64,000 nucleotides of DNA from Candidatus Nomurabacteria bacterium RIFCSPHIGHO2_12_FULL_42_19. Its GTDB lineage: Bacteria; Patescibacteriota; Minisyncoccia; Phycocordibacterales; UBA9973. Positions 61,554 through 62,889 of the stretch are shown piece by piece (the stretch's first letter is position 1; each line of letters starts with the position of its first letter). Location: NCBI GenBank assembly GCA_001786955.1, contig MFUM01000004.1:4457-68456 (forward strand), read 5' to 3'. Below the pieces are notes generated by a model that was not told where the DNA came from, did not search any database, and worked only from the letters and a program-made list of their open reading frames with translations. The position numbers and the translations under genes are program-made.

Positions 61554-62120
61554 TTAAAGATTTTTGCTCAACTGTTCTACAACCTTCCCTAACTCAATCC
61601 AAGATGTTTTACGCCCTCCGTTTTGTTCCAGCCAGGAGCTTTCCAAATCAATAAGTCGAACACTGTTTTTGCTTCCAAGAGATTTTTCAGGAACTACATA
61701 GAATAACCACTGTAAGGGATTTCGCTGATCACACGTTTTGTTGAAAATTCCATGCCACGCGAATATAAATAATTCGCAGAATCTTCCTTGTTCCTCAATC
61801 TGTTCATCTAGGTGATCTCGTTTAAAATAAGACGGTTTGTTTTTTATTTGTGTAGAAAAAGCGTGAATAGCTTTACTACGGGGCGTCCATAATTGTTTTG
61901 CCGCAGATTGTTTAAGCTGTATGCGAATCCGCTTTATTCCGTTGCCTTTCTGAAAATCCCACGGATGCCAACCTGCAGCCACCCACTCCCATGCAGGATC
62001 GGTGATGAAAAGTGCTTGCCATACCATAGCTTCTGCGTAACTGCCTCGCTCACGATTATCCATAATTTTTTGATTATAGAGATGGTCAATAAGTCTTTTT
62101 ATGATTTCTTTATTGGACAT
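61554..62120 (-). CDS. hypothetical protein, possibly PD-(D/E)XK-like
   Basis: GSYAE...WDF...IQLKQS spacing is reminiscent of restriction-endonuclease-fold motifs. Weak. Confidence 0.3.
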   Translation of the reverse strand: MSNKEIIKRLIDHLYNQKIMDNRERGSYAEAMVWQALFITDPAWEWVAAGWHPWDFQKGNGIKRIRIQLKQSAAKQLWTPRSKAIHAFSTQIKNKPSYFKRDHLDEQIEEQGRFCELFIFAWHGIFNKTCDQRNPLQWLFYVVPEKSLGSKNSVRLIDLESSWLEQNGGRKTSWIELGKVVEQLSKNL

Positions 62121-62148: not shown

Positions 62149-62391
62149 CTACCGATAATAAATTAAATGCTTTTTTAAAAACGCTCGACCGGAGCCAGAT
62201 TTTAAATATTTTTCAAAATTAAAAGCCTTGTATTTGTCTTTTGTTGCAAAGTAAAAATCTAATTCCACTGGCAAACGAGTCGAGGTAGCGGGCACGTTAC
62301 CTTTTTTGTGTCTACTCAATCTGTCTTTCAAATTGTCAGTACAACCAATATAAAAACCATCTTTACATTTTAAACTGTACACATAATACAT
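62149..62391 (-). CDS. GIY-YIG nuclease superfamily protein (80 aa)
   Basis: YYVYSLKC.DGFYIGCTDNLKDRLSRH matches the GIY-YIG N-terminal motif. Confidence 0.8.
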   Translation of the reverse strand: MYYVYSLKCKDGFYIGCTDNLKDRLSRHKKGNVPATSTRLPVELDFYFATKDKYKAFNFEKYLKSGSGRAFLKKHLIYYR

Positions 62392-62476
62392 TGATAAAGT
62401 ATAACAGCGAAGGTCGCCTTCGCAAATCTCCTGGCGGATTTCATCACGCCGAAGGTTTGCTACTGCGAACCGAAGG

Positions 62477-62563
62477 CGGATGAGGTGGGATTCGAACCCA
62501 CGGTCCTTTTAAGGGGACGGCGGTTTAGTAAACCGCTACCTTAAACCACTCGGTCACTCATCC
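62477..62563 (-). tRNA. type II (long variable arm) Ser-like tRNA with anticodon ACU
   Basis: Manual fold: acceptor GGATGAG/CTCATCC, D stem ACC/GGT, anticodon stem GCGGT/ACCGC, loop TTACTAA, T arm GTGGG-TTCGAAT-CCCAC, discriminator G. Confidence 0.7.
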
Positions 62564-62568
62564 AATTT

Positions 62569-62596
62569 TTTATAATAACATAAGGGAGTATAGCAA
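62569..62596 (-). promoter_or_regulatory. promoter TTGCTA-16-TATAAA ending 5 nt before the tRNA(ACU) 5' end
   Basis: -35 at 62596-62591 and -10 at 62574-62569, read on the minus strand. Confidence 0.45.
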
Positions 62597-62610: not shown

Positions 62611-62653
62611 TAGCATTAATATGCTAGAGTAATTACGTAATTGATTACGTAAT
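62611..62653. promoter_or_regulatory. cluster of palindromes between the divergent tRNA genes
   Basis: TAGCATtaatATGCTA (62611-62626), AATTACGTAATT (62631-62642) and ATTACGTAAT (62644-62653). Confidence 0.4.
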
Positions 62654-62661
62654 TAATTACA

Positions 62662-62677
62662 TAAAGGAGCCGTGTCT
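62662..62677 (+). repeat. 16-nt direct repeat of the tRNA-Ser(GCU) 5' end plus 4 upstream nt
   Basis: TAAAGGAGCCGTGTCT occurs at 62662-62677 and at 62797-62812. Confidence 0.7.
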
Positions 62678-62800
62678 ATGAAATATAAACTGCTTTATAT
62701 TTCATCTGTTTCGCCAAAGCGAATAGGATTATGCGCCAAAGGCGCAATCCTAAGGGAAGAGCCCGAGAGGGCGCGAAGACACGTGACTGAACGAAGTAAA

Positions 62801-62889
62801 GGAGCCGTGTCTGAGCGGTCTAAGGTACATCTTTGCTAAAGATGCAGGGGCTTTATACCCCCTCGCGAGTTCGAATCTCGCCGGCTCCG
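62801..62889 (+). tRNA. tRNA-Ser (anticodon GCU), long variable arm
   Basis: Manual cloverleaf: acceptor GGAGCCG/CGGCTCC, anticodon stem CATCT/AGATG, loop TTGCTAA, T-loop TTCGAAT, discriminator G. Confidence 0.9.

Follow-up and report, generated by a model that had tools for sequence, protein, structure and literature searches.

Among the tRNA genes in a 64,000-nucleotide stretch of contig MFUM01000004.1 from Candidatus Nomurabacteria bacterium RIFCSPHIGHO2_12_FULL_42_19 (the whole of this stretch is referred to below as the window) is one that encodes a class II serine tRNA with the anticodon ACU, and hence with adenosine at position 34 (A34). We think it likely, with a probability of roughly 0.6, that the gene is functional and vertically inherited and that its product, a member of a widespread family of serine ACU tRNAs, reads AGU specifically with an unmodified A34. 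The host group, Candidatus Nomurabacteria, falls in the class Paceibacteria of the Patescibacteria, or candidate phyla radiation (CPR); the PilM protein of the window is 100% identical to one from Candidatus Nomurabacteria bacterium RIFCSPLOWO2_12_FULL_41_10. A first reading of the window made from its letters alone (the sequence-only reading) had stated that bacterial A34 is normally restricted to tRNA-Arg(ACG), and the literature agrees (PMC8007984; PMC11066159). A34 has been called 'universally missing' from the Ser/Arg split box (PMC8007984), and tRNAs with unmodified A34 are reported to be essentially absent (PMC11066159). Bacterial anticodons starting with A, other than ACG, are likewise treated as essentially absent, for reasons described as an open mystery (PMC8007984; PMC11066159; bioRxiv 10.64898/2026.05.15.725136).

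ARAGORN called four tRNA genes in the window and placed tRNA-Ser(act) at 62475-62563 on the minus strand. The Rfam model RF00005 matched 62477-62563 on the same strand over its full length (model positions 1-71 of 71) with a score of 56.2 bits (gathering score 29, E = 9e-11), which is higher than the 45.4 bits of the adjoining tRNA-Ser(GCU). The minus-strand sequence of the gene, 5' to 3', is GGATGAG-TG-ACC-GAGTGGTTTAA-GGT-A-GCGGT-TTACTAA-ACCGC-CGTCCCCTTAAAAGGACC-GTGGG-TTCGAAT-CCCAC-CTCATCC-G. It has a 7-bp acceptor stem (GGATGAG/CTCATCC), with U8 and A14 present, a 3-bp D stem (ACC/GGT), the anticodon stem GCGGT/ACCGC, a variable region of 18 nt with a 5-bp stem, and the T arm GTGGG-TTCGAAT-CCCAC. 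G1 lies at 62563 and the discriminator G73 at 62477; the bases after G73 are CCT and no CCA is encoded. The structural features of a bacterial class II tRNA-Ser are all present, namely the variable-arm stem, the 3-bp D stem, G73 and the pairs G1-C72/G2-C71/A3-U70. The anticodon (ACT in DNA) corresponds to 62529-62527, and A34 is the complement of T62529 on the plus strand. The well-formed serine-type tRNA described in the sequence-only reading, with its loop TTACTAA giving A34 and the anticodon ACU, was thus confirmed in all its anatomical details by ARAGORN, Rfam and direct reading; the strand, which had not been stated, is the minus strand, and the covariance model gave no other fold or anticodon. 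Two further Rfam matches were discarded: 'Plastid-psbI-rps4' on the plus strand is merely the antisense of a tRNA-Ser, and a CRISPR-DR22 match in the window falls below threshold.

Other assemblies of the same locus, deriving from different samples, were retrieved from JGI, NCBI and ENA through the adjoining GIY-YIG protein. The anticodon is ACT in 8/8 independent assemblies that include the tRNA, among them that of a strain variant whose upstream sequence differs. Because all eight agree, a sequencing error at position 34 (a G in the reads, as the sequence-only reading had allowed for) is excluded.

Since all of the loci obtained by the pattern scan described below were selected for ACT, conservation was assessed in a sample anchored on PilM. 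Homologues of PilM with 80-89% identity on long contigs were chosen and 10 kb was fetched on each side, and nine loci gave DNA. The divergent Ser(ACU)/Ser(GCU) pair was found in the same neighbourhood in 6/9 of them (L486, L488, L489, L490, L491 and L492), so that the search for the same gene in relatives, proposed in the sequence-only reading, had a positive outcome. The other three have no tRNA in the DNA covered: L493 ends short of the spot, L494 carries a restriction-modification insertion and L487 is rearranged. At none of the nine loci does GCU occur without ACU, or the ACU backbone with G34. The orthologous ACU genes of these relatives are 83-99% identical to the window copy and carry compensatory changes in all four stems. 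The ACU/GCU pair is the conserved unit in relatives, and among the pattern-selected loci its synteny with the pil genes and comF can be followed, at protein identities of 30-60%, to Zambryskibacteria and other Paceibacteria. We also observed that the adjoining GCU gene is almost invariant among the relatives L486-L492, and that the GCU gene of the window itself is diverged in the D and anticodon stems, with a non-standard D-stem pair flagged by Rfam.

To describe the wider distribution, the pattern TTACTAA-N20-29-GGGTTCGAATCCC was scanned in species-dereplicated genomes and in IMG/VR viral contigs, with at least 120 matches in each; the counts that follow are among the 120 matches listed for each set. 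ARAGORN confirmed a class II tRNA-Ser(ACU) at no fewer than 111 genome loci (111/120) and at no fewer than 115 viral loci (115/120). Patescibacteria account for 66 of the genome matches by label, 63 of them with the tRNA, and the lineages represented are Paceibacterota, Nomura-, Zambryski-, Taylor-, Magasanik-, Collier-, Roizman-, Woese- and Levyibacteria, Microgenomates and Saccharibacteria. A further 25 matches are in third-party-annotation (TPA) metagenome-assembled genomes (MAGs) titled 'uncultured Gammaproteobacteria' or 'Pseudomonadales'. These have a G+C content of 0.35-0.49, and the identity of their ACU tRNAs to CPR copies is mostly 0.8-1.0; for these two reasons the MAGs look mislabelled (examples are L137, L141, L149, L159, L163, L173, L174, L180, L182, L185, L193, L194, L201-L203, L207, L210 and L212); several of them share a Ser/Arg tRNA cluster with Microgenomates. 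Planctomycetota or Verrucomicrobiota of 50-69% G+C contribute 13 matches, and at two of the Planctomycetota loci the surrounding genes are those of an ordinary chromosome, including genes for molybdopterin enzymes, pyruvate kinase and an ABC transporter. The rest comprise eight unlabelled genomes, three others and five chance matches without a tRNA. At 60 of the 111 confirmed cellular loci a tRNA-Ser(GCU) is also present within the 8 kb fetched.

On the viral contigs the ACU genes mostly lie in arrays with tRNAs for Asn(GUU), Thr(UGU), Arg(UCU), Gln(UUG), Glu(UUC), Leu(UAA), Lys(UUU) and Ile(UAU), and only 3 of the 738 tRNAs in these ACU-selected loci are Ser(GCU). The position of the ACU gene within phage arrays of decoding tRNAs suggests that it is used in translation. 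Two calibration scans, which used different patterns, left position 34 free. With one shared anticodon arm, contigs of bulk metagenomes gave 117 genes with G and 3 with A (2.5% A); the viral scan gave 70 Ser(GCU) and 16 Ser(ACU), or about 19% ACU among AGY serine tRNAs with this T arm. INPHARED (50,697 GenBank phage records) was covered by limited BLAST searches, a method poorly suited to a single-base question; the six matches that were checked with ARAGORN (XacN1, ZC08, S-PM2, RHph_Y65, S-CBWM1 and TSW001) proved to be Ser(UGA) or Ser(GCU) only. Other A34 tRNAs were seen in passing, namely a tRNA-Ala(AGC) in a Saccharibacteria MAG and three tRNA-Gly(ACC) and one tRNA-Phe(AAA) in viral arrays. 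One ACU-bearing viral contig has a tRNA with a CTA anticodon, resembling an amber suppressor, and another encodes a tmRNA.

We next consider the sequence properties of the family. An alignment of 65 diverse ACU genes was analysed with RNAalifold, which recovered the class II cloverleaf, kept in all members, with double compensatory changes in 20/27 stem pairs; the covariation indicates that the fold is under purifying selection. Neither G1 nor G2 varies, and at least 90% of members have A3. The window copy belongs to this family by its UUACUAA loop on a class II serine body and its compensatory stem changes across species. For comparisons of identity the columns fixed by the search pattern were masked. 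Across genomes, mean identity is 0.675 between ACU genes and 0.54 between ACU and GCU genes, and at 55/60 loci the GCU gene of the same locus is less similar to the ACU gene than are the ACU genes of other genomes. The ACU genes of CPR bacteria, of the Planctomycetes-Verrucomicrobia-Chlamydiae (PVC) group and of viruses are 0.61-0.66 identical to one another, compared with 0.53-0.61 to any class of GCU gene; the nearest GCU gene is about 0.75 identical and the nearest ACU gene at least 0.92. A recent G34A mutation of the adjoining GCU gene is ruled out, the two being only 52-59% identical. As ACU genes are closer to one another than to GCU genes, they are, on these alignments, an old and distinct isoacceptor lineage and not the product of repeated point mutation, the deeper history being beyond the resolution of an 87-nt molecule.

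Whether AGN codons keep their standard meaning in this genome was assessed from codon use and from homologues. In 52 open reading frames (ORFs) of the window AGT occurs 121 times, AGC 198, AGA 208 and AGG 109, and AGA is the most used arginine codon, as it also is in the ACU-bearing phage contigs. When window proteins were compared, codon by codon, with homologues from the fetched loci, AGA aligned with CGN codons 39 times, with AGR 32 times, with lysine codons 65 times and with serine codons only 8 times. AGG behaves in a similar way, and AGT and AGC align with serine codons. Judged from these alignments the AGN code of this genome is standard, AGA and AGG remaining arginine codons, and their reassignment to serine is ruled out. 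With a standard code and AGA a frequent arginine codon, heavy insertion of serine at AGA would damage the proteome. The proposal in the sequence-only reading that an inosine at position 34 might let AGA be read as serine is accordingly not upheld. We noticed in addition that third-position bias in the window ORFs flips with the middle base: NAT exceeds NAC (AAT 691, AAC 276; TAT 443, TAC 165) and NGC exceeds NGT (AGC 198, AGT 121; CGC 243, CGT 108; GGC 439, GGT 203; TGC 85, TGT 49).

Seryl-tRNA synthetase (SerRS) does not read the anticodon. Since the identity elements are present as well, charging with serine is expected: SerRS would recognise the long variable arm, G73 and the pairs G1-C72/G2-C71/A3-U70. 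We infer that the gene is expressed and its product serylated, that A34 most likely remains adenosine, and that it would form a Watson-Crick pair with the U of AGU on the ribosome. The tRNA would then act as a dedicated AGU reader beside tRNA-Ser(GCU), which reads AGC and, by wobble, AGU. The genetic code is unaltered, with AGA and AGG still decoded as arginine.

Several observations weigh against this interpretation. AGU is not enriched in the window, where it makes up 38% of AGY codons. In ACU-bearing phage contigs AGU is the top serine codon, at 19.3 per 1000, and its share of AGY is 0.67 compared with 0.58 in GCU carriers, but this excess is gone after correction for G+C content (ordinary least squares coefficient -0.004, t = -0.2). 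The ACU tRNA is also present in Planctomycetota of 58-69% G+C, where AGU is expected to be rare. Demand for AGU is therefore unsupported as the reason for the ACU tRNA, and with no preference for AGU beyond that explained by G+C, codon supply alone does not account for the retention of A34. A rationale for a seemingly redundant AGU reader beside GCU is missing, the simple argument from codon supply being weak. Finally, conversion to I34 was inferred in E. coli for a Phe-tRNA(AAA) that serves a two-fold box and has its native backbone, and this may leave room for deamination that depends on the tRNA backbone.

That last point leads to the first of the alternatives, in which A34 is deaminated by TadA or another enzyme and the resulting Ser(ICU) reads AGU, AGC and in part AGA, giving Arg-to-Ser ambiguity or recoding. 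A34 of cellular tRNAs is usually converted to I34 according to the literature, and the occurrence of ACU instead of GCU in phage arrays (115 against 3 among the ACU-selected matches listed) would be easier to understand if both AGY codons were read; the tRNA-Arg(UCU) that often accompanies it there (47 copies among the matches listed) could out-compete misreading of AGA. We nevertheless regard deamination as unlikely. Beyond the alignment of AGA with CGN and lysine codons in place of serine codons, the loop itself speaks against it: the natural TadA substrate, tRNA-Arg(ACG), has G36 in the motif U33-A34-C35-G36, whereas here the bases are U33-A34-C35-U36. When a tRNA with the ACU anticodon was assayed in E. 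coli, AGU was read at 9.4%, AGG at 0.36%, and AGC and AGA below detection, and no inosine was found (PMC11066159). Also in keeping with an AGU-specific role, Ser-tRNA(ACU) of E. coli was one of only a few ANN tRNAs of two-fold boxes to give better growth (bioRxiv 10.64898/2026.05.15.725136). Nine CPR loci (L140, L149, L154, L158, L159, L207 and L241 among them) encode tRNA-Arg(GCG), near tRNA-Arg(CCG) and serine tRNAs, and tRNA-Arg(ACG) is found at none of the 120 genome loci listed. The use of G34 for CGY is the archaeal solution. The presence of Arg(GCG) without Arg(ACG) hints that the TadA/I34 system is unused in these CPR relatives, and that these lineages may do without TadA and I34. A tblastn search with an approximate E. 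coli TadA query gave no match in the window or in about 2 Mb of fetched loci, a small part of each genome.

A specialised role is also conceivable and, like deamination, has in our view only a small chance of being correct. Here the tRNA would serve as a reserve decoder of AGY codons, insensitive to an anticodon nuclease or toxin that recognises G34 of tRNA-Ser(GCU), or else as a serine donor for a tRNA-dependent non-ribosomal reaction. Such a role would fit its redundancy with the adjacent GCU gene in cells (60/111 loci among the matches listed), the lack of an explanation from codon usage, the fact that the ACU and GCU loops differ only at position 34, and the over-representation in phages, with the reservation that the two scans compared used different patterns. 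It would also fit the much faster change of ACU than of the near-invariant GCU among the Nomurabacteria relatives, as for a lightly used tRNA. On the other hand, no nuclease specific for tRNA-Ser(GCU) was identified and no conserved partner gene lies beside the tRNA, its T arm and acceptor stem resemble those of an ordinary elongator tRNA, and phages keep it among decoding tRNAs. The suggestion in the sequence-only reading that the gene is accessory or derived from a mobile element, brought in by the GIY-YIG ORF or by a phage, is very unlikely. It rested on the GIY-YIG ORF, which does lie where that reading placed it, and on repeat-rich DNA; the spacer does carry repeats and an insertion of about 135 bp, and the same tRNA family is abundant on phage contigs. 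Four other species (L246, L190, L139 and L151) also have small GIY-YIG homologues (38-75% identical to the window ORF) no more than about 175 nt away from the ACU tRNA, but these are the only ones among the at least 111 loci in the matches listed; this recurrent minority association may reflect a preference of such ORFs for tRNA-adjacent sites. The order from recG through the tRNA pair and the 167-aa gene to comF and the pil cluster is kept in many relatives, at 30-89% protein identity, that mostly lack the GIY-YIG ORF (it is absent at the syntenic spot in L231, L204, L211 and L486-L492), and so the presence of the tRNA does not track the element. The nearest tRNAs are all from cellular Patescibacteria (L231, 97.8%; L226, 96.6%; L486, 99%), and there is no break in G+C content at the locus. 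On these comparisons the tRNA is core and the GIY-YIG ORF a variable insertion and not its vehicle; the stretch from the tRNA to the conserved 167-aa gene, which holds this ORF, the 188-aa ORF and the cupin gene, is a variable segment. Because A34 in a split codon box is reported to be absent from all genomes, one might suspect a pseudogene, a duplicate in decay or an artefact of assembly or sequencing, but this is effectively refuted already and hardly credible: the sequence is identical in the eight assemblies, scores above the adjoining GCU gene in Rfam, and is kept with compensatory changes across many genomes. A functional serine tRNA that reads AGU with unmodified A34 remains the interpretation that we prefer.

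The features of the locus are collected in Table 1. In order of decreasing coordinate the genes are recG, two small ORFs, tRNA-Ser(GCU), a spacer of 237 nt, tRNA-Ser(ACU), the GIY-YIG ORF, an ORF of 188 aa, a cupin gene, ORFs of 167 and 408 aa, comF and a type IV pilus cluster. The standard tRNA-Ser(GCU) that the sequence-only reading placed about 240 bp away is thus present at that distance, on the opposite strand. The spacer is longer than the approximately 80-200 nt seen in relatives because of an insertion of about 135 bp; its flanking 16-nt direct repeat duplicates the first 12 nt of tRNA-Ser(GCU), and the segment has the appearance of a short insertion whose target site, at the 5' end of that gene, was duplicated. 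Between the divergent tRNA genes there are also three tandem 12-nt units with overlapping palindromes, which may be a candidate protein-binding site. The promoter ascribed to tRNA-Ser(ACU) in the sequence-only reading stood in part. The motif is present, its TATAAA box ends 5 nt upstream of G1, and the strain variant with different upstream sequence (L008) retains TATAAT 4 nt before the tRNA. However, the site was not listed by a consensus promoter scan that required T at position 6 of the -10 hexamer, and upstream of 108 genome and 112 viral family members there is no shared sigma-70 signal, only a marginal excess with no fixed position. A putative -10-like box directly upstream of the gene is plausible. 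In the NCBI assembly version (L002) a 169-aa product takes the place of the 188-aa ORF that separates the GIY-YIG ORF from the cupin gene, and relatives lack this ORF.

Table 1. Positions of the tRNA-Ser(ACU) gene and of associated features. Coordinates refer to the window unless preceded by the designation of a fetched locus (L).
Feature	Coordinates	Strand	Basis
tRNA-Ser(ACU) gene, class II, long variable arm	62477..62563	-	ARAGORN, Rfam RF00005, direct reading
Anticodon loop UUACUAA (7 nt; TTACTAA in DNA)	62525..62531	-	direct reading, ARAGORN, Rfam
Putative promoter: TTGCTA (62596-62591), 16 nt, TATAAA (62574-62569)	62569..62596	-	direct reading
Three tandem 12-nt units (TAATTACGTAA and variants)	62630-62664		
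Apparent spacer insertion of ~135 bp, flanked by 16-nt direct repeat TAAAGGAGCCGTGTCT (at 62662 and 62797)	62662..62812	+	repeat search
tRNA-Ser(GCU), divergent partner	62801..62889	+	ARAGORN; Rfam 45.4 bits
Terminator-like GC-rich hairpin GCGAAGGCGACCTTCGC then T-rich tail, between tRNA and GIY-YIG ORF	62407..62423	-	sequence scan
Small GIY-YIG ORF, 80 aa, 85 nt downstream of tRNA	62149..62391	-	Pfam PF01541, 46.7 bits (cut-off 22.6)
188-aa ORF	61554-62120	-	no Pfam match
Other A34 tRNAs (examples)	L147:5911-5984; L021:5753-5827; other viral loci		
CTA-anticodon tRNA; tmRNA (ACU-bearing viral contigs)	L016:2704-2774; L031:374-766		

In full-text literature searches, of incomplete coverage, a tRNA-Ser(ACU) of bacteria or phages was nowhere described, and neither the text nor two supplements of a 2026 paper on the tRNA genes of Patescibacteria mention it. 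ACU genes are surely present in public annotations as unremarked 'tRNA-Ser' lines. We would give even odds to the broader proposal that a two-fold-box tRNA-Ser(ACU) with unmodified A34 is a conserved core component of translation across Patescibacteria, shared by some PVC bacteria and commonly carried in phage arrays. If so, this would overturn the universal exclusion of A34 from the Ser/Arg split box and provide a natural test system for the puzzle of the 'missing ANN tRNAs'. It might also point to an unrecognised selection, such as decoding fidelity or escape from anticodon nucleases, that favours A34 over G34 at AGY codons. A conserved natural tRNA-Ser(ACU) is a direct counter-example to claims that A34 is absent, and it offers natural sequences, paired with a GCU control 80-240 bp away, in which to study decoding by A34 and the avoidance of misreading at AGA and AGG. 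The gene also bears on tRNA-based indices of codon adaptation and on gene annotation in CPR and phage genomes, with the caution that its occurrence is no evidence of codon reassignment.

Among known tRNAs the closest comparison is with bacterial tRNA-Ser(GCU), which is likewise class II, with a long variable arm, G73, a GGA.../...UCC acceptor stem, the loop UU-N-CUAA and A37, and is presumably charged by the same synthetase; the anticodon arm GGU-UUNCUAA-ACC of the ACU tRNA is frequent, too, among the ordinary GCU tRNAs that G+C-rich bacteria carry. It differs from tRNA-Ser(GCU) in having A34 in place of G34, in forming a sequence family of its own and in coexisting with a separate GCU gene in cells. 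Another bacterial tRNA whose genomically encoded A34 stays adenosine is the natural tRNA-Thr(AGU) of Mycoplasma/Mollicutes, organisms with reduced genomes (cited in PMC11066159). Its codon box is four-fold, so that decoding more than one codon does no harm, whereas ACU lies in a split box shared with arginine. A34 is gene-encoded in tRNA-Arg(ACG) and tRNA-Leu(AAG) as well, but those serve four-fold boxes and are deaminated by TadA, in contrast to the present case with U36 and with AGA read as arginine. The same anticodon has been engineered in E. coli, on an orthogonal M. jannaschii tRNA and as a G34A Ser-tRNA, where the ACU tRNAs are specific for AGU, carry no inosine, are not toxic and even confer a growth benefit (PMC11066159; bioRxiv 10.64898/2026.05.15.725136). 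Those tRNAs are artificial, with another backbone or host, while the gene in the window is natural and conserved. Finally, the arrays on IMG/VR phage contigs hold the same tRNA species, but the window copy, unlike those, resides in a cellular core locus with GCU as its only partner.

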